Origin: an uncultured bacterium
GTDB lineage: Bacteria > Babelota > Babeliae > Babelales > Babelaceae
Reading direction: 5' to 3'
DNA length: 64,000 bases
NCBI GenBank assembly: GCA_963819815.1
Contig: CAWFXL010000001.1
Span: 192,001 to 256,000, forward strand
Positions 5,292 to 36,950 of the stretch are shown here, piece by piece (the first letter of the stretch is position 1; each line of letters opens with the position of its first letter). Position numbers and translations under genes: made by a program. The notes beneath the pieces were generated by a model. That model was given only the letters and a program-made list of their open reading frames with translations. It ran no database searches and was not told the DNA's origin.

Positions 5292-5299
5292 AACACTAA

Positions 5300-15503: not shown

Positions 15504-16967
15504 TTAGACATATTCTCTGAATAAATCATCAAGCGTTACTACTCCAGAGATGAGGTCTTCTGAATAGATGGTCTTTTTAAGGCCACTGGCAGAAATCATT
15601 GCAAGATAGAGCGTTTTTCGTGTTTTTGTTTGTTTTGCGAATACTGCGCATTTTTTTTGTAGTACTTGGGCATATTCCTTATCTATTGCAAAAGCCTTTT
15701 CAGTATATTTTATCTCACAGAGCGTTATTGATCGATCCTCTCTATCAAATAATAAATCAATTTGTGCTCCTTGCTCAGGAGAGCCCTTTTTTGGCACGAA
15801 GCGCCATTGGGATGCACCGGCCATTGTGAGATTTACCGCTTGTCTAATCAAAGGGACATGCTTATTGCAAATTGATTCAAAAGCACATCCTGCCCAGCTA
15901 TGCCATGCTGGAGAGTTTTGAACCTTCGTCCAATGTCCTTTCTCTTCCCCCCGTTCTATCATTTCTTTTTTTGGCTCTATCCACTTAAAGTAGAAGAGGC
16001 TATATTCGTCTGACATCTTATAGAAGATCCCTTTCTTTTTGCGACCAAAAGAGGTGAATCGTTGAATGAATCCTGTTTGCTCGAGCACTTCAAGGTGAGA
16101 CTTTAACCAGCCACCTGACTCTTGGACAGTCACCTGATCAAAAAGCTCTTCCTGGCCGATTCCATAACAATGCTGAGCTATAATTCTTGCCAATTCAGCG
16201 TGAATACTATCTTGGCCAAACAGCGTGGCATAGAGGAGCGAAAACTCCTTCAACAGAAAACTATCCTTTTTGAAAGCAAGATACTCAATGTTCTGCATAG
16301 CCGATAATCCAGCCTTTATTTGATCCAAATAAAACGGAATACCACCGATAACCATATAGAGATGGACAATATCATTATTAGCTAGCTTTACTTTCTTATG
16401 TTTCAAATACTCTTTTGTCTGATGCAAGTCGAATGGCTTTAGGTGGATCACCCGAGTAGCACGGTTATAGAGCCCCCCGATATTGTGAATGATATTTTTT
16501 AAAATCCAGTTCGATGCTGAACCGCAAATAATCAACTTAATTCTTCGGTCCATAGACCAATGGCGATTCCAAAAGTAATCGAGCATTTGAAGTAATTGAG
16601 ATTTTCTCGTAACCATCCAAGGAAATTCATCAAAGAACAAGACAATTTTCTTTTTCTGCGATAATTCGATCGTATTAGTGAGCAGATTAAATGTTTCTCT
16701 CCAATCCTTTTTAACACTGAGCTCAGGATGCCCAAAGGCACGAGCGATAGAGTCAGTAAATTGTGCAATTTGTTGCTCTTGAGTCCCGTCCTTTATGCCT
16801 GTTACGTACAAAAAGATGCTATTCGTTTTTTTTGAAAAGGTGTTCCTCACGAGAAATGTTTTTCCAACTCTTCGTCTGCCATAAAGGGCAATAAACTCAG
16901 GGTTGTCTGAATTGTAGGCTTCTTCAAGTATTTCTTTCTCTTCTTTTCTTCCAATAATCTTAAACAT
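15504..16967 (-). CDS. AAA ATPase (archaeal-type ATPase_2-like) with probable wHTH and C-terminal PD-(D/E)XK-like domain
   Basis: IIGRKEE, Walker A YGRRRVGKT, Walker B FFDEF, GGIPFYL, QIDLLFD...CEIKY. Confidence 0.9.
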   Translation of the reverse strand: MFKIIGRKEEKEILEEAYNSDNPEFIALYGRRRVGKTFLVRNTFSKKTNSIFLYVTGIKDGTQEQQIAQFTDSIARAFGHPELSVKKDWRETFNLLTNTIELSQKKKIVLFFDEFPWMVTRKSQLLQMLDYFWNRHWSMDRRIKLIICGSASNWILKNIIHNIGGLYNRATRVIHLKPFDLHQTKEYLKHKKVKLANNDIVHLYMVIGGIPFYLDQIKAGLSAMQNIEYLAFKKDSFLLKEFSLLYATLFGQDSIHAELARIIAQHCYGIGQEELFDQVTVQESGGWLKSHLEVLEQTGFIQRFTSFGRKKKGIFYKMSDEYSLFYFKWIEPKKEMIERGEEKGHWTKVQNSPAWHSWAGCAFESICNKHVPLIRQAVNLTMAGASQWRFVPKKGSPEQGAQIDLLFDREDRSITLCEIKYTEKAFAIDKEYAQVLQKKCAVFAKQTKTRKTLYLAMISASGLKKTIYSEDLISGVVTLDDLFREYV

Positions 16968-17481: not shown

Positions 17482-18354
17482 ATGATGAATGTGATGGTAG
17501 CGCTCCTATGCTCTTTACTATGGGCAGGAGTGACTATTGGAAGTAAAATGCTTTCGGGAGCTCTTCCTTTTTTTGCCTTTGCTTTTCTGCGTTATTCATT
17601 GGCTGCTTTATGCTTACTCCCCATACTACTTATGCGGAAAGATAAGGAAGAGCTGAAAGTACGCTATCTTCCCACTCTTATGTTTTTAGGGTTTACGCTT
17701 GTGTTCCTGTTTAATGCATTATTCTTTAATGCTCTATATTATAGTTCAGCAACATCGGTAGCTCTCATAGGTGCTACTAATCCTATTTTGACTATGCTGG
17801 TATCTGCTGTAGTGTTTAGACATATTCCAAATAGGTACCAGCTTTTAGCGTTTATGCTTTCTTTTGCGGGAGCGGCCTTGGTAATTACCGAAGGAAAAAT
17901 GGGAGTTGCTGTGTTAATGGGAAGTGTTGGAGATTTTCTTATGCTTCTAGGGGTGCTTTGCCAGATACTCTATACTATGGCATTAAATAGGGTGAGTGTT
18001 CACTTTTCGCCGCTATTCCTATCATTTGCTACAATAGTAAGTGGTGTTCTATTTGTGTTTCCCTTTATAATAAGCAAAGAATTTGTTCACGTTGTAACGC
18101 ATCTTACGGTAGGACAATGGGGGATCTTTGCTTTCATTAGCTGCCTTGGAACAGCATTGGCCATCTATCTCTACTCCTATGCTATCAAGCATATGGGCCC
18201 TGCGAGGACTAGCTTAATCGTTTTTAGTTCGATGCCCGTCTTTGTATTCTTGCTTGCATTCCTGATATTGGGAGAGAGCATTTCAGTGTGGCAGCTACTT
18301 GGGGGCATTCTTGTTGTATCTTCATTAGTGATTGGTTTGCGGCATACCCGATAA
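17482..18354 (+). CDS. EamA/DMT family transporter, copy 1
   Basis: About 10 TM segments, LLWAG, FLRY, ALYYSSAT, YAIKHMGP. Confidence 0.9.
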   Translation: MMNVMVALLCSLLWAGVTIGSKMLSGALPFFAFAFLRYSLAALCLLPILLMRKDKEELKVRYLPTLMFLGFTLVFLFNALFFNALYYSSATSVALIGATNPILTMLVSAVVFRHIPNRYQLLAFMLSFAGAALVITEGKMGVAVLMGSVGDFLMLLGVLCQILYTMALNRVSVHFSPLFLSFATIVSGVLFVFPFIISKEFVHVVTHLTVGQWGIFAFISCLGTALAIYLYSYAIKHMGPARTSLIVFSSMPVFVFLLAFLILGESISVWQLLGGILVVSSLVIGLRHTR

Positions 18355-20334: not shown

Positions 20335-20410
20335 CTATTTGTGTTTCCCTCATTATAATCAAGGAATTTGTTCACGTTGTAACGCATCTTACGGTAGCAC
20401 AATGGAGGAT
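20335..20410 (+). pseudogene. Remnant of a third EamA copy
   Basis: Matches 18049..18125, including an identical 34-bp stretch GAATTTGTTCACGTTGTAACGCATCTTACGGTAG. Confidence 0.8.
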
Positions 20411-20546
20411 TTTTAGTTGGCTTAGGCCATACATGGTAACTTTCTTAAAAGGGAAACGTTGAGGAATACGTTTCTGTAATTCTACGTATATCACTCAGAG
20501 CGTTCGCTTCTGGTGCTCAGCTCAAAATTTCTCTGCCTCGATCAGC

Positions 20547-22436: not shown

Positions 22437-23629
22437 ATGAACAGGCACCGGCTGCTAGGCAGTATACTCTTTTTATTGAGTGTTTTCTCCCCCTCTCAAG
22501 AGGTGTATTCCTATGTGTACGGGTATACGCGATTATACAGACCAGATACCCAAACAACACTTGACCTAGTCTATGACTACCACAAAGCTTCCGACTATCT
22601 CTCCCATGAAGAAATGAATTCCTTCTTATGTGATGATATTAAACAGGGGCTGTATTCTTCGGAGAAGACCTTTGTTGAGTCTCTTGAGCATCTTAATCGA
22701 ACAAATCCCCATGATACAACGGTGATCTGGGAAAATGCACCGAACTTTGTTCCAGCTGAGGTTCATCTCCTTACCTATCCGCAGCGGCTTGTCACAAATC
22801 GCCTACGCCAATTGAGCTTTATTCCCGCAGATACCTGGCGATCTGACTATCCAGGATGTCTCATGTCAGTGTTGCGCGGTGGTAGCTAGAAAATCGAGTT
22901 GATCGTCGTGCTATTATCCAAAACCACGGATCTCAGGTATGGGATGGGTACAAAGCATTAATGGGTACTACGCTTCGCAAACTGAAAACTACCTATGGGG
23001 CACACCGTGAAAGGGTGGCCTACTCGAGACTTGGCGATGATCTGTATAAAGAACTTTTCTTTGCAAAGCCACCTTATTCTGAACTCGCTGATTTAGAAAT
23101 GATATCCCAAATCTTACAATCTCCTCATCGCCATATTGTCCTCTTTGCTGGAGGACTCCACTGTCATAACATTGTGGACTTTCTTTTCTCTGCAGCCTCC
23201 TTTGAGGTGATTCATTCTGTAGTTGATCGGGATTGGGTAGAGATTGATCCCCATGAGCTTAAGCGGATTGCCCACAGTCATGGCCGAGAAACCCGAACTC
23301 CCCAAAGACCATATCGTGCCCCTAACCCAGGACCTAGTACAAGACCTGTACGGCCGGGCAAGACAGCCAAGCCAGCACCGCTTAAGACCAAGAAAAAGCC
23401 ACCTACAGAGATAGCTGAGAAGCAGAAGAAGCAGCTGCTCGTAGGAGGAGCGGTAGCTCTTGGAGCTCTTATGTTATCTGCGTACCGTGAAAGTAAGGAC
23501 ACTGGAGTAGCTATGTCGGGTATAGCACAGCGCAAACTGCTGAACACCTTGAAATATGGCGCAATACCAGGTCTGCTCTACTACGCATTGATTAAGAATC
23601 AAAAATATCAGAGTGCACTGACTGCTTAA
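22437..23629 (+). pseudogene. Exported hypothetical protein, paralog A, split by a 1-bp deletion at about 22887
   Basis: AGC-TAGAAAATCGA here versus AGCTTAGAGCATCGA in paralog B; restoring the T gives about 397 aa. Confidence 0.85.
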
Positions 23630-23667
23630 ATATGGATCTAGAGGAAAATTTGAAAGGGAGGTTGCTC

Positions 23668-24672
23668 GTGAACAGGATAGGTAAAATACTCCTCTTATTG
23701 CACGTTTTCTATCTCCCACAAGTATATGGCTATGTGTGTGGGTATACGCGGTTATATAGTCCTGAAACACAAACGACGCTGGATTTTGTGTATGATGTTC
23801 ATAAAGATTCGAAGAAACTATCTCATGATCAAATGCATAACCTCTCCTGTGATGATCTTTTGCAGAAACTTTATCCTTCTGAGAAGGCCCTCGTTGAGTC
23901 CCTTGAGCATCTTAATCGAACAAATCCCCATGATACAACGGTGATCTGGGAATATGCACCAAACTTTATTCCTGCTGAGGTTCATCTCCTTGCCCATCCA
24001 GAGCGGCTTGTCACGAATCGCCTACGCAAAGTGAGCTTTATTCCCGGAGATACCTGGCGATCTGACTATCCAGGATGTCTCATGTCAGTGTTGCATGGAG
24101 GTAGCTTAGAGCATCGAGTGGATCGCCGTGCCATTATCAAGAACTACGGATCTTGCGTGTGGGAGGGATACAAGGAATTAATGGAGACTGCGCTTCGCAA
24201 CCTGAAAACTTCCTATGGGGCACATCGCGAAAAAATAGCAGATTCAAGATTTGGCGATGATCTCTATTTCGAACTATTCTTTGGAGGGACTCCCTACGTT
24301 GTACTTGCTGATTTAGAAATGATAGCCAACATATTGCAATCGCCTCATCATCATATTGTCCTCTATGCTGGGGGGCTCCACTGTTATGAGGTTGTGAAGT
24401 TCCTTTTATCTACGGCCTCTTTTGAGATGATACATACCGTAGTAAATGAGGATAGGTCAGAGATTAATTCTCAAGAGCTTAAGCGGATCAGAAGACCAGG
24501 CAACTCTCGTGCGCTCAATCCAACGTCTGGCACGAGACCTGTGCAGCCTGGCAAGTCAGCCAAGCCGTCAGTAGAGATAGCTGCTTCTGAAAGTAAGAAG
24601 AAGCGCCTGTTCCTAGGAGGGGCAATAGCTCTTGGAGCTCTTATGCTATCTGTATACTGTGAAAGCCAGTAG
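23668..24672 (+). CDS. Exported hypothetical protein, paralog B, with a truncated C-terminus
   Basis: GTG start after GGGAGG; highly similar to paralog A; homologous tail continues in frame to 24801 behind TAG and TGA. Confidence 0.8.
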   Translation: MNRIGKILLLLHVFYLPQVYGYVCGYTRLYSPETQTTLDFVYDVHKDSKKLSHDQMHNLSCDDLLQKLYPSEKALVESLEHLNRTNPHDTTVIWEYAPNFIPAEVHLLAHPERLVTNRLRKVSFIPGDTWRSDYPGCLMSVLHGGSLEHRVDRRAIIKNYGSCVWEGYKELMETALRNLKTSYGAHREKIADSRFGDDLYFELFFGGTPYVVLADLEMIANILQSPHHHIVLYAGGLHCYEVVKFLLSTASFEMIHTVVNEDRSEINSQELKRIRRPGNSRALNPTSGTRPVQPGKSAKPSVEIAASESKKKRLFLGGAIALGALMLSVYCESQ

Positions 24673-24927
24673 ACGTGAGTAGCTCTGTCGAATATAGCAC
24701 AGCGCAAACTGGTGAACACCTTGAAATATGGTGCAATACCAGCAGGTTTGCTCTATTTTTTATGGAAGAGATCTCAAGATCAGACAACAAAGTCTGCTTG
24801 AACGGGGTTATCTAGGAAACAATTGATGAAATATTGAGCCAAGGAACGAGCAGATGGGTGGAATTGGCTTGACAAAAGAGACTCGATGCCACATGATCTT
24901 CATGTAGACGTACCTAAGAAGAAAGCC

Positions 24928-25791
24928 ATGAAATTCAATCAACCAGCCTCATCTATATTCCCGCCAGATGGTCTTAATGCTGAAGCAGCATTAGGGCGAA
25001 CGACGCACTTGGCCATTGTTGGGCATCAAGATGATACCGAGATTCTTGCTATTGATGGCATCCTTGCCTGCTTTCAGCAGAAAGATCAGTGGTTTACCAG
25101 TGTCGTGGTGACCGACGGGCGAGGTTCCCCTCGATCAGGCACGTATACAGCATACACCGATGATGATATGCGAGCAGTGCGAATTAAAGAACAGATGAGT
25201 GCTGCTATGATAGGGGAGTATGCTGCACAAGTATTCTTAGACTATCCAAGCTCTCAGGTTAAATCACCCAACGATCATCTTATTGACGATCTCGTCGACG
25301 TTATCAGAAGAACTCAACCTAAAGTTATCTATACGCACAATTTGGCTGATAAACATGAAACGCACGTAGCAGTGAGTCTTAGAGTGATAGAGGCCTTACG
25401 TCGTATGCCGCATACAGAGCGCCCTCAAAAGCTTTATGGCTCTGAAGTGTGGCGTGATCTTGATTGGCTTACAGATGAGGACAAAATTACGTTTGACTGC
25501 TCATCTCATGAAAGCCTTCAGCAAGCACTTCTTGGAGTTTTTGAGTCGCAAATTTCAGGAGGAAAGCGGTATGACCTGGCTACTATGGGGCGCCGAAAGG
25601 CCCATGCTACCTATGCAGTAAGCCATCAGACTGATGTTCAGACTGGTAGTGCCTTTGCAATGGACTTAACGCCCCTTATTAAGGAGGACTCGCTTGATAT
25701 AGATTCCTTTGTAGAGTCTTTGATTAATCGGTTTAAAGAAGATGTGCAAAGTCGCTTATACAAGCTGATGCAGAAGCAGGATACACGCTAA
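24928..25791 (+). CDS. PIG-L/LmbE family N-acetylglucosaminyl deacetylase
   Basis: GHQDDTE, VVTDGRGS, RIKEQ, FLDYP, IYTHN..DKHETH. Confidence 0.88.
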   Translation: MKFNQPASSIFPPDGLNAEAALGRTTHLAIVGHQDDTEILAIDGILACFQQKDQWFTSVVVTDGRGSPRSGTYTAYTDDDMRAVRIKEQMSAAMIGEYAAQVFLDYPSSQVKSPNDHLIDDLVDVIRRTQPKVIYTHNLADKHETHVAVSLRVIEALRRMPHTERPQKLYGSEVWRDLDWLTDEDKITFDCSSHESLQQALLGVFESQISGGKRYDLATMGRRKAHATYAVSHQTDVQTGSAFAMDLTPLIKEDSLDIDSFVESLINRFKEDVQSRLYKLMQKQDTR

Positions 25792-25827
25792 GCGTATCTG
25801 AAAAATGTGCCAAATAGGATTGAGGCT

Positions 25828-25855
25828 TTGACATTTTCATCATTTTTGTTATAAT
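25828..25855 (+). promoter_or_regulatory. Near-consensus sigma70 promoter
   Basis: TTGACA, 16 nt spacer ending in TGT, then TATAAT. Confidence 0.7.
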
Positions 25856-25899
25856 TCAATTAGTATAAATAATAAGAAATATAACAACGAGGAACTTCT

Positions 25900-26193
25900 A
25901 TGAACTTGCTTAAAATTTCGTTTGCGGCGATTGTGGTAAGCTTTGGGCTTTGCGCTCCATCCTTTGCCCATCGTTACGTCAATCCAACCTACTATTCAAA
26001 GTGTTACGACTGTCCAACTCAGGTAGTCTACCAAGAACCTGTGTACGTTCAGAGGGTACCTATGGTTGAGTATGTTCAACCTGTGTATGTACAACCTACC
26101 TATGTTCGTCAGTATCGTTCATATCATAGACCACACCGTCATCACTACCGTCACTCATACCGACCATCAATTAACTTTTCATTTGGTTTTTAA
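25900..26193 (+). CDS. Small exported Tyr/Pro/Val- and His/Arg-rich protein
   Basis: GAGGA RBS, signal peptide, PVYVQ/EYVQPVYVQPTYV repeats, C-terminal FSFGF. Confidence 0.8.
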   Translation: MNLLKISFAAIVVSFGLCAPSFAHRYVNPTYYSKCYDCPTQVVYQEPVYVQRVPMVEYVQPVYVQPTYVRQYRSYHRPHRHHYRHSYRPSINFSFGF

Positions 26194-26202
26194 GTGATTG
26201 AA

Positions 26203-26229
26203 GGAGGTACTCATATACAGAGTACCTCC
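26203..26229. terminator. Hairpin between convergent genes
   Basis: GGAGGTACTC-7 nt-GAGTACCTCC, perfect 10-bp stem. Confidence 0.7.
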
Positions 26230-26282
26230 CATTGCTTAGCTTTGAAGCGCTACCACTTGATTACTTGATGGGTATCCACGTC

Positions 26283-27488
26283 CTATTTTTTTTGATAACG
26301 GCGTAGGGGAAGAAGGGTGATAATGCTGAGAAAGCTTATAATTCCCGCTATGCAAAATGCAGCTTTGGCGCCTATCATACGCCAGATGATTCCTAGTATA
26401 ATACTCGAGAGCAACGCAGCAAGACTATCAATAGTATTGATAATGCCATAACCTGTTCCACGTACATTCTCAGGTAGAACATCCGCAGCAAGAGATTTCT
26501 GTAGACTTACGTAGGTTCCTGCGCTAAATCCTGAAAGGAAGAAGATGCAGAGGGCTGAAATGAGTGAGGTACTCTGCCAGGCAAGAAGAAAACACATAAT
26601 CCCAAAAAATCCAAAGCCTCCTATCCCTAAAGGAATAAGGCGTCCAATCTTATCGCTGATAGATCCCATTGCATAACTTGAAAATGTCTGAATAATATTG
26701 CGGAAAATATACATAAGAGCAACGGTACTTAATGCTACTGCCGCAGAAGCCCCTGGAGAGAGTACTTCTTGCATGCGCAGTACTAAGAGACTTTTATTAA
26801 AATTACCTAATCCAAACATCAGAAAAACCCCCATAAGATAATAGAAAGCCCTGGGTAAGGAATTCTTAAAGATAAACAAGAACGAAAATGGTTCATTGGT
26901 GACAGTATGCGGAACATCTTTGACCAGCATATATATAATAAGACAGGCAAGAACTCCTGGAATGAGCGTTATGAGAAAGAGCTTATGCGGTGACCAGTCA
27001 GCAAGAAAATAGACAATGAGTGGACCAAGTATCGATCCAAGAGTATCAAAGGCCTGTCTAAATCCAAAAGCTCTTCCGTAATAGGCTTGAGGAGTTGAAT
27101 CAGCAATGATAGCACTTCGGGGAGCACTGATGATACCTCTTCCAATCCAGGCTCCTGTCATGAGGAGAAATACGGTAACCCAATGGTTAGCAAAAGCAAG
27201 GAGACCTACGAGTGATCCTGCAAGAAAATAGCCAAAGACAATCATAGGTTTACGGTTCGTAAGCTGGTCACTCAATTTTCCAGCATAGAGACCCGAGAGA
27301 CTTGCTACGGCTGTAGAGGTTCCTCCAATAAGGGCCACATAAGGAGGTGCGGCATCTTTTCCGAGCAACTGAGAAATCAATAGAGGAAGTATGAGTGGTA
27401 CAACTTCATGACTTGCGTCACTCATAGTGCTCGCCAAGCTAAATCCGACGACGTTCTTAGTAAGCCATTGTGGATAAGAAATTTTCAT
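26283..27488 (-). CDS. MFS transporter
   Basis: About 12 TM segments, GKLSDQLTNRK, GSISDKIGR, GRAFGF; start MKISYP at 27488 after AAAAGGAG. Confidence 0.92.
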   Translation of the reverse strand: MKISYPQWLTKNVVGFSLASTMSDASHEVVPLILPLLISQLLGKDAAPPYVALIGGTSTAVASLSGLYAGKLSDQLTNRKPMIVFGYFLAGSLVGLLAFANHWVTVFLLMTGAWIGRGIISAPRSAIIADSTPQAYYGRAFGFRQAFDTLGSILGPLIVYFLADWSPHKLFLITLIPGVLACLIIYMLVKDVPHTVTNEPFSFLFIFKNSLPRAFYYLMGVFLMFGLGNFNKSLLVLRMQEVLSPGASAAVALSTVALMYIFRNIIQTFSSYAMGSISDKIGRLIPLGIGGFGFFGIMCFLLAWQSTSLISALCIFFLSGFSAGTYVSLQKSLAADVLPENVRGTGYGIINTIDSLAALLSSIILGIIWRMIGAKAAFCIAGIISFLSIITLLPLRRYQKK

Positions 27489-27543
27489 GGGATCTCCTTT
27501 TGAAGGAGTATACACAGGTCTTTTTCAAAAAATATAGATTTTG
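27480..27543. repeat. 64-bp direct repeat, left copy (contains the MFS start codon and RBS)
   Basis: 63/64 identical to 29324..29387. Confidence 0.95.
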
Positions 27544-27692
27544 GTGGTAATTGGGCGTAGAATAGCACCCATGAGAAAAAGATGATACCAACAGCTCATG
27601 AAGTGGTTTTTACTACGCAGTCTGCTATCTAAAATTCTGCGCAGTAGATTTGCTCACTTCCTTTACATGTACTCTTTTGGGTATGATAGATC

Positions 27693-29135
27693 TTAGTTGT
27701 CGGGTGAGAAGATATCTGAAAAATTAATAATTTTTGCAAAAAAACCATTTGCTATAACTTCTTCATCGACGCCATTCACGTGAACTAAAACGGGCCTCAT
27801 TGAAAACCCTTTGGGATGAATCAGATGGGCCATTTTTTTTTGCATCTCTTTTATCACAGCTTTTCCAACGGGGTTTTTGGAAAACTTAAACTCACAAAGC
27901 CATAGCCCCCCGAAATGTGTCTGAATAAGATAATCAATCTGGCATCCAGGGAGCTTATTTGTCTTTCGTTGGAAAAAGGGATTGTCAGATACTATTTCAT
28001 CATGGCTGATTCCTAAGCAGTCCTTAATATATTGGCGATTTCTTAAAACGAGGTTGTCAAATTGCAGACCCATAAGAGAATCCCATCCGGGAAGCAATGA
28101 GAGTGATTTGGCAGTAAATGTATCAGTTTCTATTTTGGGTAGGTTTTTTTCAATATATTTCAAATAAAATCTTACGTAGTTATCGCTTAAGCGAAAATGA
28201 CTTAACCGTGAAGCTTCTCCTGAAGCAATATGCCAAGTATAGTCACGACTGACAAAGCCAGACTTTATAAGATCTTCAAGATATTCGCCTACAGATCCGC
28301 CTTGGTTTAACTCGAGTATTTTAGTTATTTCCTTAAGTTCACGAGCACCGTCTGCAAGGGTCTCAATAATTTTCTTATAGGTTTCAGTGCGCCGGGAAAA
28401 GATGTCATTAAAGATATCTTTAAACTCATGAACCAAAAGACCACGTTTAGTGAAACAGAGTTTGCGAATCGTTTGCTCTGCGGGTAAAGAAGGATTCATT
28501 TCTTCAAGATACCGAGGGACTCCACCGGTTACTGAGAGTACTTTTAGTTTTTCATAGGCCGAAATGAAATCCCCATTCTGAGCCCAAAACTGGTTACACT
28601 CTTTGAGTGGGAGCTCTTCAAGGGTGAGCCGATAAGATATTCGGCCAACGAAACCGGTGCTTGATAAGATGTTTTTATCGATCCACGTAGAAACTGATCC
28701 ACACAGGACAAGAATGAGGTTAGGGTTTTTCGCGAAATAGATGTCCCAGGCGTTCTTGAGTTTCCCTAAAAATTCAGGATCTTTTGAACCCATCCATGAA
28801 ATCTCATCAAATAGAACAATAATCCTACCGGTTTGAATGTCCCTATGCAACAAAATGAAGAGTTTGCTCCAATCGTCAGCAAAAACCTCAGGGGTTCCTG
28901 TTTGAGCGCTTAATTGACGAGAAAACTCATCTAATTGTGACTGCATCGTTGTGGCAGCGACAGGTGGGCTACCGGAAAAGTGGTAGAATGTATGATTCTT
29001 AGCAAATTCTTCAACGAGACGACTTTTGCCGATTCGTCGACGTCCCTGAATAACGACGAGACTTGCAGTTTTTTTTTCAAATAATTCCGAAAGCTCAGCT
29101 AGTTCACGCTTTCTACCAATAAATGGGCGGGCCAT
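27693..29135 (-). CDS. AAA ATPase (ATPase_2-like) with probable wHTH and PD-(D/E)XK-like C-terminus; paralog of 15504..16967
   Basis: FIGRKRE, QGRRRIGKS, LFDEI, GGVPRYL, QIDYLI...CEFKF; start MARPF at 29135. Confidence 0.9.
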   Translation of the reverse strand: MARPFIGRKRELAELSELFEKKTASLVVIQGRRRIGKSRLVEEFAKNHTFYHFSGSPPVAATTMQSQLDEFSRQLSAQTGTPEVFADDWSKLFILLHRDIQTGRIIVLFDEISWMGSKDPEFLGKLKNAWDIYFAKNPNLILVLCGSVSTWIDKNILSSTGFVGRISYRLTLEELPLKECNQFWAQNGDFISAYEKLKVLSVTGGVPRYLEEMNPSLPAEQTIRKLCFTKRGLLVHEFKDIFNDIFSRRTETYKKIIETLADGARELKEITKILELNQGGSVGEYLEDLIKSGFVSRDYTWHIASGEASRLSHFRLSDNYVRFYLKYIEKNLPKIETDTFTAKSLSLLPGWDSLMGLQFDNLVLRNRQYIKDCLGISHDEIVSDNPFFQRKTNKLPGCQIDYLIQTHFGGLWLCEFKFSKNPVGKAVIKEMQKKMAHLIHPKGFSMRPVLVHVNGVDEEVIANGFFAKIINFSDIFSPDN

Positions 29136-29167
29136 AGGGTACTCCAATATCAAAAACTTTCTAAAGA

Positions 29168-29266
29168 TCACTAATCATAAATGGAAAAAGCCAATTATGA
29201 TTGGTGAAACTCTGCCCCAAGTTTACCACTCATAATTGGAAAAAGTCGATTATGATTAGTGAAACT
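29168..29266. repeat. Two tandem inverted-repeat units upstream of the ATPase gene, 55-bp period
   Basis: TCACTAATCATAA..GGAAAAAG....TTATGATTGGTGAAACT and TTACCACTCATAA..GGAAAAAG....TTATGATTAGTGAAACT. Confidence 0.9.
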
Positions 29267-29323
29267 TTGAGAGCGCTGAATTGTCCTACCTTTTCCATGC
29301 CCCCCGATTGCATGTAGATATGT

Positions 29324-29387
29324 AATTTTCATGGGATCTCCTTTTGAAGGAGTATACATAGGTCTTTTTCAAAAAATATAGATTTTG
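29324..29387. repeat. 64-bp direct repeat, right copy
   Basis: 63/64 identical to 27480..27543; offset 1844 bp. Confidence 0.95.
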
Positions 29388-29447
29388 AGTACATTTGAGA
29401 GTACACTTACCGGCATATGGGCAGGTCCTCTTCAGAAAGGGTTTTCT

Positions 29448-30074
29448 ATGAATCGCTATCATGCTTTTCTTTGTAGTGTACTATTCTGCGGCTTACTCTT
29501 TGGATCTGAGCAGCGGACTCTTCAAAGAACCTATTCTACGTTTCCAGCTGCAGATGCTCTTAAGCGTGCCATACGCAGAGGTGATGTTGATATCGTTAGG
29601 GAGCGCATGGCGGTGCTACCTCTCGGCATTGATTCTCAGTATGCGTATCTAGGATTAGCTCGTTCGTTTGATATGTGTAGCTTTTTGCTTGATGCGATCT
29701 GTTCTTCTTGGGTTGAGCGAATTAAAAGATCACCGCAAGATGCCCTAAAAACTCTTCATGTAGGACTTACTAGACTTTATAAATCGTTTCCGCTTGATGA
29801 GCTTGATCATGGGTTTCGATGTACTCTTGCTAAAATCAGAAGAGCAGCGCTTCTGTTACCCCGCGTAGCTGCGGATCCAAAAGCAAAAGCCCTTGCAAGT
29901 TCGATTCCCGACTATTTTTATCACCATGATGCTAGGATGATACAGGCTTACCGGGAAGCTTTTGAGGAGCACACCGATCTGAGTCCAGAGCGTAAGGAGC
30001 TTCTTTCAAGAGCCCATAGAATATATACGAGAACACTTCTGATTCAATCACAATCGCAAGAGACAGCTGACTAG
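29448..30074 (+). CDS. Exported hypothetical protein
   Basis: Probable start MNRYHAFLC after GAAAGGG; signal-like N-terminus. Confidence 0.7.
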   Translation: MNRYHAFLCSVLFCGLLFGSEQRTLQRTYSTFPAADALKRAIRRGDVDIVRERMAVLPLGIDSQYAYLGLARSFDMCSFLLDAICSSWVERIKRSPQDALKTLHVGLTRLYKSFPLDELDHGFRCTLAKIRRAALLLPRVAADPKAKALASSIPDYFYHHDARMIQAYREAFEEHTDLSPERKELLSRAHRIYTRTLLIQSQSQETAD

Positions 30075-30312
30075 CATGCTCGAAGGGTGCTCCATGATGT
30101 GTGGTTGTCATGCCTCGTCAGTTATTCTCTTACTAATTCGGCGGCAAGTCGCAGAAATTATCTTCTAAAGATACTAATGAGTTACGACTTTGGAATGGAA
30201 TAATCAATACGCTCACAACTTGAATTTGCGAGCTGAAGTAAAATGATCTACGATACTATCTAAGACTTTCTTGCCTGAGTAACACAATAATACATAATGA
30301 GAGAGATTGCAC

Positions 30313-32253
30313 ATGGTTATTCGTTATCTTACCTACGCTTGTTTTTTGACGTCTTTTTATTACCTGCAGGGTGCAGCACTTTTACGCACACCTCTGAGCC
30401 CCTGTAAGCCTGGAATTCTTCAGGCTGTCAAGAACGATGTACATGCACATGTTGAAGAAGTCACTCAGCGGTGTCTTGAAGCAAGTGACCTTCATGCAGC
30501 AGCTGTTGCCGGTGACATACCAAAGACGAGAGATCTAGCTTTATCACATGAAAAAACTCCGCCACGTGTTCTAAGCCCTTTAATGTGTGCACTTGCTCAA
30601 AGACATACCGAAGTTGCTCGACTTCTTTTGAAAATGAGAAGTTTTGAAGTTGCTCAACAGGATCAGTGGGGCCTAACAGCGCTTTTCTATGCACTTAATG
30701 GGAGCACAGATCTTATTGATGAACTTCTTGATCAAGGTGCACATGCGCATCTGAGAGGTGTCCAACTGCTCGACGTTCTCTTCCTTGCGGCTCTCTTTGA
30801 GCAGCAAGATGTCATCGAGAAACTTCGCGAGGTAAGCGCTCAACCAAACATCGAACCTTATGGTAGTAACTTTTTTACATTCGTAAAAAGCGATCTGTTT
30901 AAAGCACTATTTGCTGATGCTTCACAATTCGATACGTTCGATGTCTTCAATTTTGTCGCCCTTACCGGTAAATCAAGGGAGTTTGATCCATCTGGTTCTG
31001 GATGCACCTATACCTGTGAAAAGTTACGGTTCGCTCTTGAAAAGCATCTAAAAAAAACACAGCCAAATAATCTGCCATTGCTTCGAGCGATTCTTGCAAA
31101 TAATCCACAAAGGGTTGCATCACTGATCGAGCGAGGTGCTTTGCCGGTAGCCCATTATCCAGATACCATAAGTCCTATTGACGTTGCCGCTCTAGTTGGT
31201 TCTGCGGAGGTTATAGATAGCCTTGTTACGACAGGCAAGAAAAAGAATAATTTTCACTTTCTTCCGTATCGCTTAGGTGGCGCTGCTCACTTTCTTAGAG
31301 GTCTAAACGGTGAACCTATGCTTACCGAACTTAATCAACTTCACCTTGCTGCTCTTGCATCAAATTGGCCTGCTCTCAGGCAATTGAGTACCTATGGGTT
31401 TACTAGTAATCGAGGTGAGCTAACTCCTCTTCACCTTGCGAGCCAATGGGCAACTCCTGAAACGGTTGCTACGCTTCTTGAGCTCGGGGCGAATGTAAGC
31501 AGTAGGGATGAATCAGGCCTCCTGCCACTTCATTTCGCCATAGATAACATCGATGTGCGTGCTGTAACTGCACTGTTAATCAGGGGAGGCGCATCACTCA
31601 GAGAATTTTTAGACAAGTACTCAACGGGCGCATCTATTACAACAACTCGGCGCAGTTCATCATTAAGAAGCAGTGAATTTATTCGAGGCATTCTCGATGC
31701 CCTTACTGACCTTGACGAAAATAACGGTGCACTATTGATCACTACTCTCCAAGCAGGGGGCATTCCTCAAGTTGCGATGCTTTTGAAAGCGGGTGCTCGA
31801 GCAGATACGCATGATGATCGAGGAAGAACAGTTATTCATCACACGGTAGAAGCATGCTGTAAAAAATCTCTGCGCCCTGAAGATACTTCTGCACTTATTA
31901 AGTTGCTTACTACTCATGGAGCAGACATTGATGCACAAGATGCTCATAATAAAACGGCCCTCAATCGTGCCATTGATCGCCGGTGTATGATGGTTTGGGT
32001 ACCTTTACTTCAAAATAATGCAACGATTTTAAGCTCAACAAAACCTATGAATGAGTGCTACAGTGAGCTCTATGCATTAAAAAACTGCTCTGAAATGATT
32101 GAAGTACACCCAAACTGTAAAAATGAGACCCAGGCTGTTCATCTATGTATCATTGCCAAAAGTCCTTCGTCACTGAAAGTGTTTGACTTCGGGCAAGAAG
32201 GGGCTGCTCTTGGGCTGTTTGTTATTATTTTGTTTTATCTCTGCTGTAGATAA
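30313..32253 (+). CDS. Ankyrin repeat protein with signal peptide and C-terminal TM helix
   Basis: SPLMCAL, GLTALFYA, LTPLHLASQW, GLLPLHFA, HGADIDAQDAHNKTAL; tail ALGLFVIILFYLCCR. Confidence 0.9.
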   Translation: MVIRYLTYACFLTSFYYLQGAALLRTPLSPCKPGILQAVKNDVHAHVEEVTQRCLEASDLHAAAVAGDIPKTRDLALSHEKTPPRVLSPLMCALAQRHTEVARLLLKMRSFEVAQQDQWGLTALFYALNGSTDLIDELLDQGAHAHLRGVQLLDVLFLAALFEQQDVIEKLREVSAQPNIEPYGSNFFTFVKSDLFKALFADASQFDTFDVFNFVALTGKSREFDPSGSGCTYTCEKLRFALEKHLKKTQPNNLPLLRAILANNPQRVASLIERGALPVAHYPDTISPIDVAALVGSAEVIDSLVTTGKKKNNFHFLPYRLGGAAHFLRGLNGEPMLTELNQLHLAALASNWPALRQLSTYGFTSNRGELTPLHLASQWATPETVATLLELGANVSSRDESGLLPLHFAIDNIDVRAVTALLIRGGASLREFLDKYSTGASITTTRRSSSLRSSEFIRGILDALTDLDENNGALLITTLQAGGIPQVAMLLKAGARADTHDDRGRTVIHHTVEACCKKSLRPEDTSALIKLLTTHGADIDAQDAHNKTALNRAIDRRCMMVWVPLLQNNATILSSTKPMNECYSELYALKNCSEMIEVHPNCKNETQAVHLCIIAKSPSSLKVFDFGQEGAALGLFVIILFYLCCR

Positions 32254-32308
32254 ATACAAGGTATCCTTTGCATGGGTGCATGTTGCTATCTATGGTAGCA
32301 TTCGCAAC

Positions 32309-32632
32309 CTAGGATTTTTTATCTTGCAAAAGCTTTGATTCCGACCAGAGAATGGTTGCAAAGTAGGAGGTAGCAGCCATACTGAATCCTGCTCCTGTAT
32401 ATCCAAGCGCAAGCATAAAAAGCTTCCCATGAGATAGGGAAGGTGAATCTTGTGCTTGCCAATATAAATAGGCATACGTTCCCATAAGACAGCATCCTGC
32501 ATAGGTGGTGAGAAACTTTTGAAAGGAACTGTTTTGTTGTGGCGACGGGGTAGTGCGTTCAGATTGAGCTGCCTGGAGTGATAGTGCAATGGTACTTACT
32601 AAAAGGGTACTTACTAAAAAAATACGTTTCAT
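32309..32632 (-). CDS. Small exported or membrane hypothetical protein
   Basis: Signal peptide plus two hydrophobic segments; ATGA overlap with the upstream gene. Confidence 0.7.
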   Translation of the reverse strand: MKRIFLVSTLLVSTIALSLQAAQSERTTPSPQQNSSFQKFLTTYAGCCLMGTYAYLYWQAQDSPSLSHGKLFMLALGYTGAGFSMAATSYFATILWSESKLLQDKKS

Positions 32633-32955
32633 ACATGCCCCTTTATCAAGTGATTAGTGAGGAAAATGGTTTTACTCGAAAGAGTACTCCAAAATACATT
32701 CCCAAGCCCAAAAGAGAGGGTAGCCCCAGTGAGTAAGCAAGTAATCTTTTCTTGGAAATTTGCTCTCCTGAGGTGTATGAAATCAAGTATAGAAAGCCGT
32801 AAGTACTTGCTGAGCTCAACCCGAAATATTTCATGTGCTGTAGTTGTTTTGGAGTTAGAATTTTTTTCGTAGGTTGTTTTTGTAGACTCAGGTAGGGGAT
32901 TGACTGCCCATAGAGGAGTCATACATATAACAAGGAGAAAAAGAACTGCTTTCAC
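32629..32955 (-). CDS. Small exported or membrane hypothetical protein
   Basis: GTG start after AAGGA, signal peptide. Confidence 0.65.
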   Translation of the reverse strand: MKAVLFLLVICMTPLWAVNPLPESTKTTYEKNSNSKTTTAHEIFRVELSKYLRLSILDFIHLRRANFQEKITCLLTGATLSFGLGNVFWSTLSSKTIFLTNHLIKGHV

Positions 32956-33164
32956 GAAGATCCTTGGTAAGTCTATTAAACTAGGTAATGCCTATTAGTA
33001 TGCCGCTCCCCAATCAGTTAGTCAATGCCATTCTATTCACATTGTTAACACCTTCAGAAGCTGAGTTCGGGCATGCGGAAGTACTGCATACGTAGATTTG
33101 CTGGGTGAGCATCATGTTCGTTTGCTCGGTAACTGTGTGTGATCGTAGGTAGTCTTTGAACGGA

Positions 33165-33216
33165 CCTGATTTTTCAGCTTGCACTATTTAGAACACCCGC
33201 CACACTAGTAGCCAAA
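33165..33216. repeat. Degenerate 52-bp direct repeat, left copy
   Basis: 40/52 identical, ungapped, to 34996..35047; offset 1831 bp. Confidence 0.75.
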
Positions 33217-33343
33217 CAAAGAATCTAACATCAATTCGATGACTGAATGATTTTTTTGTAAAATTTATCTCCAAAGCTAACTTATAGTGCATTAATCAAC
33301 AAATATTTACAAAAATATCAACAAATTTTGTAAATTGTGCTCG

Positions 33344-33541
33344 TGTCCGTTATGGAGGTACAAAAAATCAATTTTTAGACTTGCATAACGGACAAAAAAC
33401 CAATAATGAATGATGGTCTTAGGTATATATACTCGGCAGATAGAGGTCAAAACTATTATTCATAAGGTCTTTTTATGACAAAGCAAGCTGTCCTTTACAA
33501 AGTGCTAAAAATCATATAAAGTAGACTAACGTAATGGACAG
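33344..33541. repeat. Two inverted-repeat units upstream of the ATP-binding protein gene
   Basis: TGTCCGTTATG(33344)...CATAACGGACA(33394) and CTGTCCTTTAC(33488)...GTAATGGACAG(33541); both spacers share AAAAATCA...TAGACT; offset about 145 bp. Confidence 0.8.
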
Positions 33542-33566
33542 TTTTTTTAGAAGGGGGGCTGATGCT

Positions 33567-34874
33567 ATGGTTAAGTTGTTTGAAGAGATGATCAGAGAGT
33601 TTCACGCATCCCATATACCAACGCCTAGCAGAAGAGATATCTTTATTCCTAGCTTTCCTGAGCATGTGCGTAAGGCTTTAGTATTTATAGGCATGAGAAG
33701 AAGCGGGAAGACGTGGATGCTCTACCAAGTCATGAAAGATCTCATGGCGCAAGGTGTAGACATAACCAAAATAGTCTACATTAATTTTGAGGATGAGCGC
33801 CTGAGTGATATGCAAAAAAATAATTTTCAGGACATTCTCAAGGCTTATTTTCAGCTTTTTCCAGAGTATACGCACAGAAGAGATATACACTTCTTTTTTG
33901 ACGAAATACATGAAATTCCATTGTGGGAAAAGTTCATTCGGCGTCTGCTGGACCAGGGACATATGAACCTCTACATAACAGGCTCATCATCTAAGATGCT
34001 CAGTAAAGAGATAGCCACATCTTTACGGGATAGAACGTATTCACTCGAGGTCTATCCTTTCAGCTTTGGCGAAGTACTACGGCAAAAAAATATTGCAACA
34101 ACAGAGCCAATCGTGGGTCGCACTAAGAACCAGGTAATACATCAATTAAGAATTTTTCTAGAGAGAGGTGGTTTTCCCGAGGTACTGGATCGCTCTTCGC
34201 AGGAACATCGAAATCTTTTACAAGAGTACACCTCAACTGTTCTTTATCGCGATATAGTCGATAGATATGGGGTTCGAAGCATTCTTGTTCTTAAGCACCT
34301 ATTAACGCATAGCTTAAGAAATAGTGCAACACAGTTTAGTATCACAAAAATGCATAACTCTCTTAAGTCTATGGGCATCGATGCAAGCAGAACTGCGATG
34401 TATGAATTTATGGGTTATTTCGAGGATGCTTACTGCGTTTTTTCGCTCGATAAATACACTATCTCTTTCCGCAAATCATCTCAGAGTGTTAAAAAAATTT
34501 TTGCGGTAGATCAAGGACTGATAACATCAGTAACCATGGCAAGCAAACTTGATGAATCGGCACAACTTGAAACAGCGGTTTTTGCGCATCTTCGTCGCCA
34601 AACATCTCAGTTATTCTACTATCGTTCTTCTGATAATAAAGAGGTAGATTTTATAAGCATTTTAGATGACCAAACAATGCATCTTTATCAAGTTTCGTTA
34701 TCAATAGCAGATGAGGAAACAAGAAAAAGAGAAGTCAGTGCTTTAGAGACAGCTATGAAAGAGCTTCAGATTCAAAGTGGAACGATCATAACACTGGATG
34801 AAAATGAAATAATTACTACTTCATACGGAACGATCTACGTTGTTCCTGCTTGGAAGCTTTTTTTGGGTCTCTAA
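33567..34874 (+). CDS. ATP-binding protein, AAA_14 + DUF4143-type
   Basis: IGMRRSGKT, YINFEDER, FFDEIH, ITGSSSK, GGFPE, KIFAVDQG, KEVDF...YQVS; probable start 33567 after AAGGGGGG. Confidence 0.92.
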   Translation: MVKLFEEMIREFHASHIPTPSRRDIFIPSFPEHVRKALVFIGMRRSGKTWMLYQVMKDLMAQGVDITKIVYINFEDERLSDMQKNNFQDILKAYFQLFPEYTHRRDIHFFFDEIHEIPLWEKFIRRLLDQGHMNLYITGSSSKMLSKEIATSLRDRTYSLEVYPFSFGEVLRQKNIATTEPIVGRTKNQVIHQLRIFLERGGFPEVLDRSSQEHRNLLQEYTSTVLYRDIVDRYGVRSILVLKHLLTHSLRNSATQFSITKMHNSLKSMGIDASRTAMYEFMGYFEDAYCVFSLDKYTISFRKSSQSVKKIFAVDQGLITSVTMASKLDESAQLETAVFAHLRRQTSQLFYYRSSDNKEVDFISILDDQTMHLYQVSLSIADEETRKREVSALETAMKELQIQSGTIITLDENEIITTSYGTIYVVPAWKLFLGL

Positions 34875-34899
34875 AGTCCTCTCAAAATTTTAGTTCATA

Positions 34900-34941
34900 G
34901 CCAGAAAACCCCATGGCTTTTTAAGCCTGGGGATGAATGGC
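34900..34941. mobile_element. Solitary IS200/IS605-like end hairpin; could also act as a terminator
   Basis: GAAAA-CCCCA(T)GGCTT-TTT-AAGCCTGGGG-ATGAATGG, a bulged GC-rich hairpin; no transposase nearby. Confidence 0.5.
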
Positions 34942-34995
34942 AATCCTTACTATTTGCCTAAATAGCAGCTATCAGACTAGGCTCATTTAAACGTG

Positions 34996-35047
34996 CCCGA
35001 CTTTTCAGCTTGCAATTTCTAGAGCTCCCGCTATACTAATAATCAAA
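34996..35047 (+). promoter_or_regulatory. Right copy of the 52-bp repeat, containing the probable promoter of the RING gene
   Basis: TTGCAA-16 nt-TATACT at 35010..35037. Confidence 0.6.
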
Positions 35048-35092
35048 TAGTAATTTAATCAAGAATTGATAATTTCACGTAGAAGAGGATTT

Positions 35093-36950
35093 ATGAATCG
35101 TGTATTTCTCTATGTAGCTCTTATGAGCAGCTTTTCAACATCTGTGCATCTTATGAATGGCTCAAGCATAGCTACTCTTGAGGTGCAGGCATTAGAAGAA
35201 CAAGAAGCTCAAGCTGATATCTGTTCTACCTGCCGTGAATCCCTTGGGCCAGTATTAGAAGTCCTCGTTAAAGAACATAATCAATATATCAAGCTGTCTC
35301 CAGAAGTATTAAAAGCTACTCCTGAAGAGCGTAAAGCTTCTTTGCTGAGGCTCTCAGCCGATCCTGCTATGCCAGCAGCACAGAAACGATTAATTCAAAA
35401 TACAATCCTTCAAGAGCAGGAGCTCTTTGATAAAGTCACGAAAAAATATACGGCAGCTCAAACTCGTTTAAAAAAGATTAAGGAACAGTTACTGAGTGCA
35501 GAGTTTCTGGAGGGTGTGCAAGATGGATTCACTAAAGAGATCACAAAAGCGAGGCAACAGTTGAACTCTCCGGGTATTACTGATGAAGAAAAGGTACCTC
35601 TTAAGGACGATATAGCTAGATGGGAATCGATCAAGAGTGACATTATGAAGTTTAGTGCACTTGTGACAAGCATACGCTCTGCTTCTGAGCAAGAGGATAT
35701 TACTGGAGCACTTGAGCGACGAAATGCTCAAGTTGCCTAGCGTAGAAGCACGGTATAACAAGACTATTGATAGTATGCTTGAAATAGAATTATTAAGAGA
35801 AGCAAAAGAAACCCACTTACATTGTGCACATAGATTCCATAAAGACTGCCTTGATTCCCATTTCAAATCACAAAGCATCACCTTGCCTTCTGTTTCCATG
35901 CAATGTCCTACCTGTAGGGCCGATTTAGATGAGAGTGATCTTCATAGCATTTCAATAGAGCTTACCCTTGATGATTATATTGGCTTTATAAACAATAAGC
36001 TTTGCGATCTTCTCCCTATGACGAACCGCACTCATCTTACTAGGTTTTTAGCAGATCCTCTGCTAGTCGGGGAACTAGAAACCATGCTAGGACTCTCGCG
36101 GGCTGAGGTAGAACAAATCATATCTAAGCTGAAAGAGCTGCTTGCGAGTCTTACTGTTGAGAATCTTATGCAAAAGGGATTTCATGGTCTCATACAAGAA
36201 AAATTTCCGAGCTACTCAAAGGAACACGTAGCTTATGACATCAATCGTCTTGTAAAAACCATTGTCGCCTTACTTAACATACTAACATTCCTGGATGATG
36301 AGTTGTTGTCTGATACCGAGGCTGGGCCAGTTCTTAAGAGTCTTATGCTATTGTTATTAAAGGTACCAGAGCCTCAGCTGCAAGCGGATAGTCCCGCCCT
36401 TTTTCAGAGCATCGTAAATTCTGATGCATTGATACGATGCGGTGTCAACTTAGCGCTGCCTTTCGTTGTGGACGGGATTAATGCTTTTTTGAGCATGCCT
36501 GTAAGGCGTAGCCGCACGGCAATAGTCACTCTGCAAATTATTCATTTCCTTGAATGTCAAGCGAGACAAGATAATCAAATCTTTGTTGAACGTTTACATC
36601 GTTCTTTGTATCCCATAAGGTTAAACGAAGGATCTGCTGCTATTGTTGCAGATCTACTTCTATCTCAAGCTACAGGTGACACATTGCATGAAGCTCTGAG
36701 AAATCTTATCAATCATAATCCGGCTCTTCGTTCCCAAATACGAAGTGCTGCAGCTCTTCACATAGAGCATCAAGAACAAACCCATGCCCAAATTCGAAGA
36801 AGGTTTTGCATGTGTAATCACCAGATTAAGTTTTTTCTTGGAGCTTCACTTTATACATTCATCGTTATTGTGGCGACCCATTTTCTTCGAGACTACATGG
36901 AACAAGCGCATGCATTAAGAACTACTACACAAAACGTGCCATTCTTATAA
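35093..36950 (+). pseudogene. Exported RING-H2 protein with a long helical insertion and C-terminal TM, split by a +1 frameshift at about 35736 (or a sequencing error)
   Basis: CSTC in ORF 35066..35740; CAHRFHKDC...CPTC in ORF 35712..36950; removing one C gives about 618 aa. Confidence 0.78.

Follow-up and report, generated by a model that had tools for sequence, protein, structure and literature searches.

The window analysed here is a stretch of 64,000 nucleotides (nt) from an uncultured bacterium of the Babelaceae (assembly GCA_963819815.1, contig CAWFXL010000001.1, positions 192,001 to 256,000 of the forward strand). It contains a gene for an MFS transporter whose start region occurs a second time, 1.8 kb away, as a long direct repeat. 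The two copies of this repeat enclose a compact unit, made up of one ATPase gene and the inverted-repeat array which precedes it. The present text deals with the nature of this unit, its age and the way it came to lie between the two copies. The genome which holds the window, called G000, comprises 1,644,148 bp in two contigs (C1 is the contig holding the window). It was compared with 40 relatives, namely nine genus-mates and 31 genomes outside the genus. Among the genus-mates, G001 is the nearest relative, of a different species, and the others are numbered G002 to G009. The features of the locus are the following, in window positions:

26283 to 27488, minus strand: MFS transporter gene (Pfam MFS_1, E 1.6e-46); the G001 protein is 97% identical; the start region is duplicated
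27469 to 27543, no strand: left copy of the repeat, 75 nt (core 27480-27543), with weaker homology possibly to 27560; carries the MFS ATG, its Shine-Dalgarno sequence and a 6-bp hairpin
27494 to 27508, minus strand: hairpin CTCCTT-TTG-AAGGAG; in the mRNA, its 3' arm forms the Shine-Dalgarno sequence of the MFS gene; an identical stretch stands at 29338-29352
27544 to 27692, minus strand: spacer downstream of the ATPase stop codon, 149 nt; its initial 17 nt (27544-27560) also occur in G001 and are similar to 29388-29404
27693 to 29135, minus strand: ATPase gene, the cargo of the unit, 480 amino acids; AAA+ ATPase_2 domain, winged helix and C-terminal PD-(D/E)xK motif (QID...CEFK)
29157 to 29273, no strand: inverted-repeat array, 117 nt, with four 16-nt half-sites CACYAATCATAAWTGG in alternating orientation
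29313 to 29387, no strand: right copy of the repeat (core 29324-29387), with weaker homology to 29404; lies upstream of the array of the ATPase
29448 to 30074, plus strand: orf229, the divergent neighbour, with its ATG at 29448 (the listed open reading frame opens at a TTG at 29385)

The direct repeat

A repeat search of the window returned a single family for this locus, with two copies of 75 nt which are 95% identical (71/75) and spaced by 1844 nt. The core is identical at 63 of 64 positions, the sole mismatch being a C at 27516 against a T at 29360, and an 11-nt leftward extension is identical at 8 positions. The repeat occurs at these two positions only, since blastn-short found no third copy in the 1.64-Mb genome. 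The left copy includes the MFS start codon (ATG at 27488-27486, minus strand) and the Shine-Dalgarno sequence AAGGAG (27499-27494). The 6-bp hairpin is present in the minimum-free-energy fold of both copies, but these folds are not clearly better than those of shuffled sequence (z of -0.48 and -2.28). The right copy opens a frame of 45 codons (29332..29195) which begins like the MFS protein (MKI-Y).

The two copies are real. Genomes derived from metagenomes carry a general risk of collapsed or chimeric joins, which could in principle have made a second copy, and this is all that speaks for an assembly artefact. However, a contig from a separate public run (X4) covers positions 29259-29476 with two differences, that is, the right copy and both of its flanks, and both copies lie at the same places in G001 and in the G001-like contigs of another run (X1). 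An artefact, which the first-pass annotation had named as a way in which its reading could fail, is thus very unlikely, with a probability close to nil.

The unit between the copies and its cargo gene

The insert amounts to about 1.75 kb and holds one gene. Between the copies lie, from left to right, the 149-nt spacer, the ATPase gene, the inverted-repeat array and about 40 nt; there is nothing else. A Pfam search of the unit revealed no transposase or integrase domain. The only match to the tyrosine-recombinase family PF00589 in the whole genome (C1:255875-256396) stands at the window's right edge, at a distance of 34 kb; the feature, recorded at window positions 63512-64000 and running on past the window to C1:256396, is probably the resolvase of chromosome dimers.

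The descriptive part of the first-pass annotation therefore stands: it had reported two repeats, identical at 63 of 64 positions and 1844 bp apart, which contain the ribosome-binding site and ATG of the MFS gene as well as a hairpin covering that site, and which enclose only the ATPase gene, its array and about 150 bp downstream, with no gene for a transposase or integrase. The repeat search, the sequence itself and the Pfam search bear this out.

The cargo protein matches Pfam ATPase_2 (PF01637) with an E value of 2.2e-16 and 60.8 bits (cut-off of 33.2), and its winged helix was recognized through the MCM_C wHTH profile (E 2.8e-4). Along almost its entire length it matches the PADLOC profile PDLC04984 (E 4.3e-91, positions 3-473 of 474), which assigns it to the candidate defence family PDC-S27. 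Its motifs are a Walker A sequence GRRRIGK, a DE box and QID...CExK. In an alignment of the 11 paralogues of G000, GRRRxGK, DE and QID...CExK are invariant, and they are likewise invariant in a second alignment (A2). A sequence search against solved structures gave nothing below E 0.08, and NCBIfam has no family for the protein. By these matches, the cargo is a candidate anti-virus gene. The bacterium which carries it is associated with amoebae.

The array lies 22-138 nt upstream of the ATPase ATG, with half-sites at 29169-29184, 29191-29206, 29224-29239 and 29246-29261. It was found once in the genome by blastn-short; the half-sites cluster four times at this locus only, and the motif was not found anywhere else in G000. 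The array is presumed to be the operator of the ATPase's own winged helix. The gene also has a GGAG sequence and an ATG of its own, 190 nt downstream of the right copy. A match to the sigma-70 consensus lies at 27710-27683, and no terminator-like site was found between the ATPase and the MFS gene (27544-27692). No promoter-like site was detected in the repeat, but the whole scan returned 6 sites for 5.8 expected and is uninformative.

Age of the duplication

The G001 genome aligns with the window over 23547-27560 and 28932-32249. Its MFS gene is about 91% identical in DNA and 97% in protein. At orthologous positions, G001 has both copies of the repeat and, between them, a single array unit and residues 1-69 of the ATPase, interrupted by stop codons. 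Its left copy is identical to that of G000 at 61 of 64 positions and is followed by 17 shared nt. Its right copy is recognizable at both ends, but it has lost the hairpin and is 10 nt shorter, and the 45-codon frame is not conserved. The right copies of both genomes share differences from the left copy outside the core: a T at 29323 where the left copy has an A (27479), and a one-base indel further left. At the four-fold degenerate sites of four flanking genes, 11.8-19.3% of the positions differ between the two genomes. Since both copies are orthologous in genomes which have diverged to this extent, the duplication predates the split between G000 and G001. By this comparison the insertion is old.

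The first-pass annotation had proposed a recent integration, or an excisable module, with the repeats resembling the att duplications which arise when circular DNA integrates. A near-perfect 64-bp repeat around a compact one-gene unit is indeed what such a module would leave, and its excision would restore the gene order seen in two genus-mates, G003 and G005 (see below). The integration, however, was not recent: both copies and the N-terminus of the ATPase are found in G001, across 12-19% of neutral divergence. The integration of a circle by site-specific recombination also finds little favour, because the repeat is unique in the genome, the sole tyrosine-recombinase match is 34 kb off, with no recombinase in or beside the unit, and the edges of the copies are diverged, unlike those of a fresh att duplication. 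As for excision, RecA could delete the DNA between repeats of 64 bp, as it can in general (the empty site of another cassette in G001, described below, may be compared), but nothing points to a site-specific recombinase which would carry it out. A recently integrated circular module which can be excised by site-specific recombination is accordingly a highly improbable description of the unit.

The body of the ATPase in G001 has been replaced by 3 kb of other DNA (locus L046, C5, 4013-7061), which includes an inverted ATPase fragment, an extra array unit and an open reading frame of 635 amino acids with weak matches to DXD glycosyltransferases. On its left side, the replacement starts where the duplicated segment stops (window position 27560). 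Relative to G000, G001 has further insertions: a TnpB-like gene just after an ankyrin gene (L046, 10332-11498), a gene of 493 amino acids at the 3' end of a tRNA gene with a 28-nt repeat (C3:23999-25593), and an ATPase_2 paralogue without flanking repeat (C4:15356-16837).

Probable insertion between two divergent genes

The genes of the window were searched by tblastn in the surroundings of the MFS gene in each of the nine genus-mates. One further gene of the window is relevant here:

36945 to 37874, minus strand: PI-PLC-X-like gene, which lies directly upstream of the MFS gene in 6 of the 9 genus-mates and 9.4 kb from it in the window

In those six (G002, G004, G006, G007, G008 and G009) the MFS gene directly follows the PI-PLC-X-like gene, which marks 27489-36944 as a variable insertion zone. 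In G003 and G005, a homologue of orf229 adjoins the MFS gene (E 2.9e-21 and 1.3e-9, respectively) in divergent orientation, with no ATPase between them. The ATPase with both copies of the repeat stands next to the MFS gene in G000 and G001 only. Without the unit, the MFS ATG and the orf229 ATG (29448) would lie about 115 bp apart, to be compared with about 160 bp in G005 and about 320 bp in G003. This layout and the comparable length of the spacer support the conclusion that the unit was inserted into the spacer between MFS and orf229, and that the duplicated piece is the target of the insertion.

The prediction that excision would reconnect the MFS gene to the sequence beyond 29387 is matched by the layout of G003 and G005. 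The comparison with relatives gave a divided answer: the arrangement without ATPase exists in these two genomes, but the nearest relative keeps the unit with both copies.

A search of public sequencing runs returned four from soil metagenomes, as contigs only and each with 6-7% of the words, and no RNA run. The contigs of X1 reproduce the arrangement of G001, and X2 to X4 give pieces of 151-238 nt. Neither an empty site nor a circle junction is bridged in the contigs of these runs, a result which is uninformative either way on excision.

Near-identity of the repeat core

If the insertion is as old as the comparison with G001 indicates, the two copies are too similar. Neutral drift since the split predicts 7.6-12.4 differences in 64 nt, and one is observed (P <= 0.0045). 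The edges of the copies differ much more than the core: 3 mismatches in 11 nt on the left and 9 in 17 nt on the right, i.e., 12/28 on recount, vs 1/64 (Fisher P of 1.6e-5 when run with 10/28 edge mismatches; the recount only strengthens the contrast). The 17 nt of the right edge are identical at 8 positions in G000 and at 11 in G001, and the likeness in G001 is significant (6 of 5000 shuffles reach its score). Between the two genomes, 7.9% of the positions differ in the ATPase fragment, 8.5% in the array and 5.9% in the next 17 nt, vs 35% in the core of the right copy, to which 10 gap columns have to be added.

RecA is present in G000, and we infer that the core was made uniform later by gene conversion of the RecA type, left copy onto right, in the G000 lineage; we place this explanation just on the probable side. 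A generous alignment by hand of the right-copy core of G001 gives two indels and about 7 substitutions in 41 nt, however, and on this alignment decay in G001 together with constraint in G000 is inseparable from gene conversion.

The other explanation is that selection keeps both copies alike, the left one as the translation start of the MFS gene and the right one as the leader or promoter of the ATPase gene and, by read-through, of the MFS gene. The left copy is indeed conserved at 61 of 64 positions between the two species, vs 12-19% of difference at four-fold sites, and the right copy has lost its hairpin in G001, where the ATPase is broken. Moreover, the two genes are on the same strand, with no terminator-like site between them. 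But a separate GGAG and ATG serve the ATPase 190 nt downstream, the short frame (45 codons) opened by the right copy is not conserved in G001, the hairpin is weak and the repeat contains no promoter-like site (in a scan which does no better than chance). The two copies within G000 (63/64) also resemble each other more closely than do the orthologous left copies (61/64). We regard selection on both copies as a somewhat doubtful cause of the identity.

Similar repeats around other cassettes

When G000 is compared with itself, a few other gene-sized segments are seen to lie between short direct repeats, once the arrays of the paralogues are excluded. One parallel is an AAA_14 ATPase of another candidate family, PDC-S01, located downstream of groEL (C1:1370446-1371678). 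It is flanked by a repeat of 56 nt which contains a hairpin and is 53/56 identical (segment C1:1370334-1371779). In G001, the flanks of this locus are joined with a single copy of the repeat (C2:82271-82394), which makes a matching empty site; this single copy resembles the left copy on its left side and the right copy on its right side. The identical core of the PDC-S01 repeat is continued by an extension of about 65 nt with about 55-60% identity (34 of 5000 shuffles). The core and its diverged extension suggest that this duplication too is old and that G001 lost the cassette by deletion through the repeats. In G003, taken as an outgroup, the interval contains a different gene, which is no guide to the direction of the change, gain or loss.

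Two more cases are found in G000: a pair of AbiEii/AbiEi genes (C1:410417-412840) flanked by direct repeats of 51 nt, and a PLD-like (DrmC-like) gene (C1:403788-405740) with flanking repeats of 94 nt, which are a copy of the 3' end of the neighbouring gene. Other direct repeats lying close to each other in G000 (e.g., window positions 18049-18129 and 20335-20414) were set aside as tandem paralogues or remnants of paralogues.

Homologues of PDC-S27 outside the genus were surveyed in the same way. From at least 591 candidate stretches, 80 loci were fetched, and 53 of them, with a full gene and flanks of 1.2 kb, could be tested for flanking direct repeats of at least 25 nt; 101 gene-sized intervals shifted within the same loci served as controls. 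Flanking repeats were found at 9 of the 53 loci vs 1 of the 101 control intervals, which corresponds to an excess of about 17-fold (Fisher P of 3e-4, with the reservation that controls taken from the same loci as the test genes are not independent of them). Five of the nine positive loci are clean, with repeats of 57-238 nt (three in Chlamydiota, one in Gammaproteobacteria and one in Bacteroidales). About four of the nine are operator-like or repetitive, and when only 5/53 is counted the test is weaker (P 0.019). The repeats of two loci, L147 and L129, extend into the 3' end of a gene next to the cassette.

At L129, in Chlamydiota (G041, 4604-6547), the duplicated piece around the PDC-S27 ATPase is the 3' end of a 7TM-HD gene (74+31 nt). 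In a related genome of the Chlamydiota (L190; G046, 2173-4229), this 7TM-HD gene end is likewise present twice (97 nt, 94%), but the cargo between the copies is another one, of two genes. A dispersed repeat of about 150 nt, with about 20 copies, stands just upstream of the L129 cassette (4709-4863) and has many further occurrences in G041 and G052.

The recurrence of the footprint bears on a further explanation, in which about 100 bp were first duplicated in tandem and the duplication was then split by a non-duplicative insertion or a rearrangement. Such a course would fit a neighbourhood in which the zone from the PI-PLC-like gene to the MFS gene has been rebuilt repeatedly in the genus, and a pair of genomes, G000 and G001, which are separated by about 45 indels in the roughly 380 kb compared. 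It needs two events, however, the second being an insertion exactly at the junction of the duplication, and the same footprint is found at other cassettes and in other phyla. We consider this order of events quite unlikely.

The ATPase paralogues and their arrays

The ATPase family has 11 matches in G000. All nine genus-mates have it, with up to 39 matches in G003, and outside the genus it is present in 1 of the 31 genomes. That one copy (L033; G030:C65, 385-3605), the only one outside the genus among the 40 relatives, lies on a contig of 3.6 kb; direct repeats of 121-295 nt, 86-90% identical, are spaced there by about 2.3-2.5 kb, and the whole resembles units repeated in tandem. The homologues nearest to the protein beyond the genus (50-58% identity) belong to Legionellales, Chlamydiota, Thiotrichales, Bdellovibrionota and Alphaproteobacteria, and this origin from several distant groups points to horizontal spread of PDC-S27.

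Most of the paralogues of G000 are preceded by inverted-repeat arrays of their own, each distinct from the others: within the 330 nt upstream, arrays were detected in 5/11 by a finder of exact arms and in at least 9/11 by eye. Each holds 2-6 inverted-repeat units, all within some 300 nt before the start codon, and T-rich spacers occur in several. Arrays of this sort also precede the genes of homologues in other phyla (L117, L122, L129 and L147). This suggests that each paralogue binds its own cognate array, with which it presumably co-evolves. Examples of the paralogue arrays are:

window 16968-17300: array of the open reading frame 15504..16967
C1:602480-602811: array of a second paralogue
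C1:1505530-1505855: array of a third paralogue

Direct repeats flanking the gene are not a regular feature of these paralogues, an idea which was rejected: a repeat of this type is found at 1 of the 11 in G000, and there is no clean case in the 19 ATPase loci of relatives. Repeats more than 900 nt apart do occur at 4 of these 19 loci (L031, L033, L043 and L044), but none cleanly flanks a gene: L033 has the tandem-like repeat of 295 nt, one copy lies inside the gene in L031, the repeat has 30 nt in L043, and L044 consists of tandem paralogues. The small number of such repeats implies that a long duplication is not the regular footprint of the ATPase family.

A model for the insertion

The unit is probably an old insertion of a one-gene cassette which duplicated a long piece of its target, and it would be neither freshly integrated nor able to excise itself. 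In this model, a PDC-S27 cassette, with its own array, entered the spacer which separates MFS from the divergent orf229, and did so in a common ancestor of G000 and G001. The insertion would have duplicated about 64-100 bp of the target, comprising the first seven or so codons of the MFS gene, the Shine-Dalgarno hairpin and about 55-70 bp upstream. It was presumably tolerated because the left copy rebuilt an intact start of the MFS gene. With time, the outer parts of the copies would have diverged, the 64-bp core being either made uniform again by conversion or held by selection. As to the origin of the duplication, we infer staggered breaks, or template switching during the repair of a break, possibly begun by the nuclease of the cargo itself. 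The loss of the unit would then proceed by ordinary homologous recombination between the repeats, without a site-specific recombinase.

Several observations weigh against this model. The scarcity of flanking repeats among the paralogues of G000 and at the ATPase loci of relatives, and the weaker and dependent part of the survey statistics, have been given above. In addition, the intergenic sequences of G003 and G005 are so distant that they allow no alignment with the repeat, and no close relative with a single-copy empty site was found for the PDC-S27 unit. Exact scans with 24-nt words of the genome collections and of the metagenome contig collections returned only the contig of G001 and no closer strain. 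The composition of the unit, finally, carries no foreign signature (40.0% G+C, vs 42.1% for the window).

A more general proposal may be derived from the family as a whole. The PDC-S27 cassettes, like those of PDC-S01, may be autonomous mobile genes which need no recombinase, each made of an ATPase-winged-helix-nuclease and its cognate array: the nuclease would make or exploit staggered breaks, and the gene would be copied into the gap, with duplication of tens to hundreds of bp of the target. We put this forward as a speculation, and as an unlikely one. Were it true, the flanking repeats would later permit deletion, conversion or the replacement of one cargo by another at a given site. The repeat of 64 bp would then be a scar of this kind, and this mobility would be behind the spread of the family in Dependentiae, Chlamydiota, Legionellales, Bdellovibrionota and Bacteroidota.

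The movement of single defence genes between genomes without the help of a transposase or an integrase is poorly understood. For the mode which leaves a long target duplication, most descriptions concern restriction-modification genes. The locus described here, together with the PDC-S01 case and the roughly 17-fold excess of repeats, extends this footprint to a second ATPase-nuclease family of candidate defence genes. It also illustrates what becomes of such a scar over time: the edges decay, the core is apparently homogenized, and the cargo is lost or broken. The arrays, being specific to each paralogue, offer a handle for asking whether these proteins bind their own cassettes. Taken alone, the locus is a scar; it gains moderate interest as a further instance, in a second ATPase-nuclease family, of an unexplained mode of insertion without recombinase.

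Comparison with known systems

According to a 2026 survey (PMC12988326), PDC-S27 proteins join an ATPase and a PD-(D/E)xK domain in one fusion, and validation is pending for most such candidates. The protein studied here resembles this description by its full-length profile match and by its P-loop and PD-(D/E)xK motifs. In its accessible text, the survey is silent on upstream inverted-repeat arrays and on long flanking repeats. The family is expanded here to 11 copies in G000 and to as many as 39 matches in a genus-mate. The literature searches made here turned up no paper which connects these ATPases with flanking repeats and none on DUF4143 with direct repeats; among the papers listed on Dependentiae and ATPase paralogues, none dealt with this topic by title or abstract.

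The unit differs from insertion sequences and other transposons in that it has no transposase, that none of the 11 inverted pairs detected forms a terminal inverted repeat at the ends of the insert, and that the duplication reaches at least 64 nt, vs 2-14 bp in such elements. With the islets inserted by tyrosine recombinases, it shares direct repeats (attL and attR in the islets), one of which restores the end of the target gene. It differs from them by the lack of an integrase in or near the unit, the lack of any further "att" copy and the diverged edges around an identical core.

The closest known counterpart is the insertion of restriction-modification units with long target duplications. 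Furuta, Abe and Kobayashi (2010, PMC2853133) described units of this kind, inserted with duplications of variable length, longer than 30 bp, the examples ranging from 46 to more than 400 bp. These units have no mobility genes, and their repeats have no further copy in the genome and frequently reach into the ends of genes. The authors suggested a part for DNA double-strand breaks made by the cargo, as well as amplification by way of the repeats; they credited the first cases to Nobusato et al. (2000). As far as the accessible text of the 2010 paper allows the comparison, the differences lie in the cargo, which here is a single PDC-S27 ATPase-nuclease with no R or M gene, and in the scar, which here involves the 5' end of a gene and is old, with a core that was apparently re-homogenized. 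The repeats of the unit exceed 30 bp (a core of 64 nt, or 75 nt at 95% identity), and the insert of about 1.75 kb is far below 20 kb and carries no mobility gene. A relative free of the insert, with the target in single copy, is known for the parallel PDC-S01 cassette; for the PDC-S27 unit, the corresponding DNA of G003 and G005 is unalignable. The likeness is that of a small unit of the defence type, without transposase or integrase, between repeats which are far longer than the duplications made by insertion sequences and which occur nowhere else in the genome.

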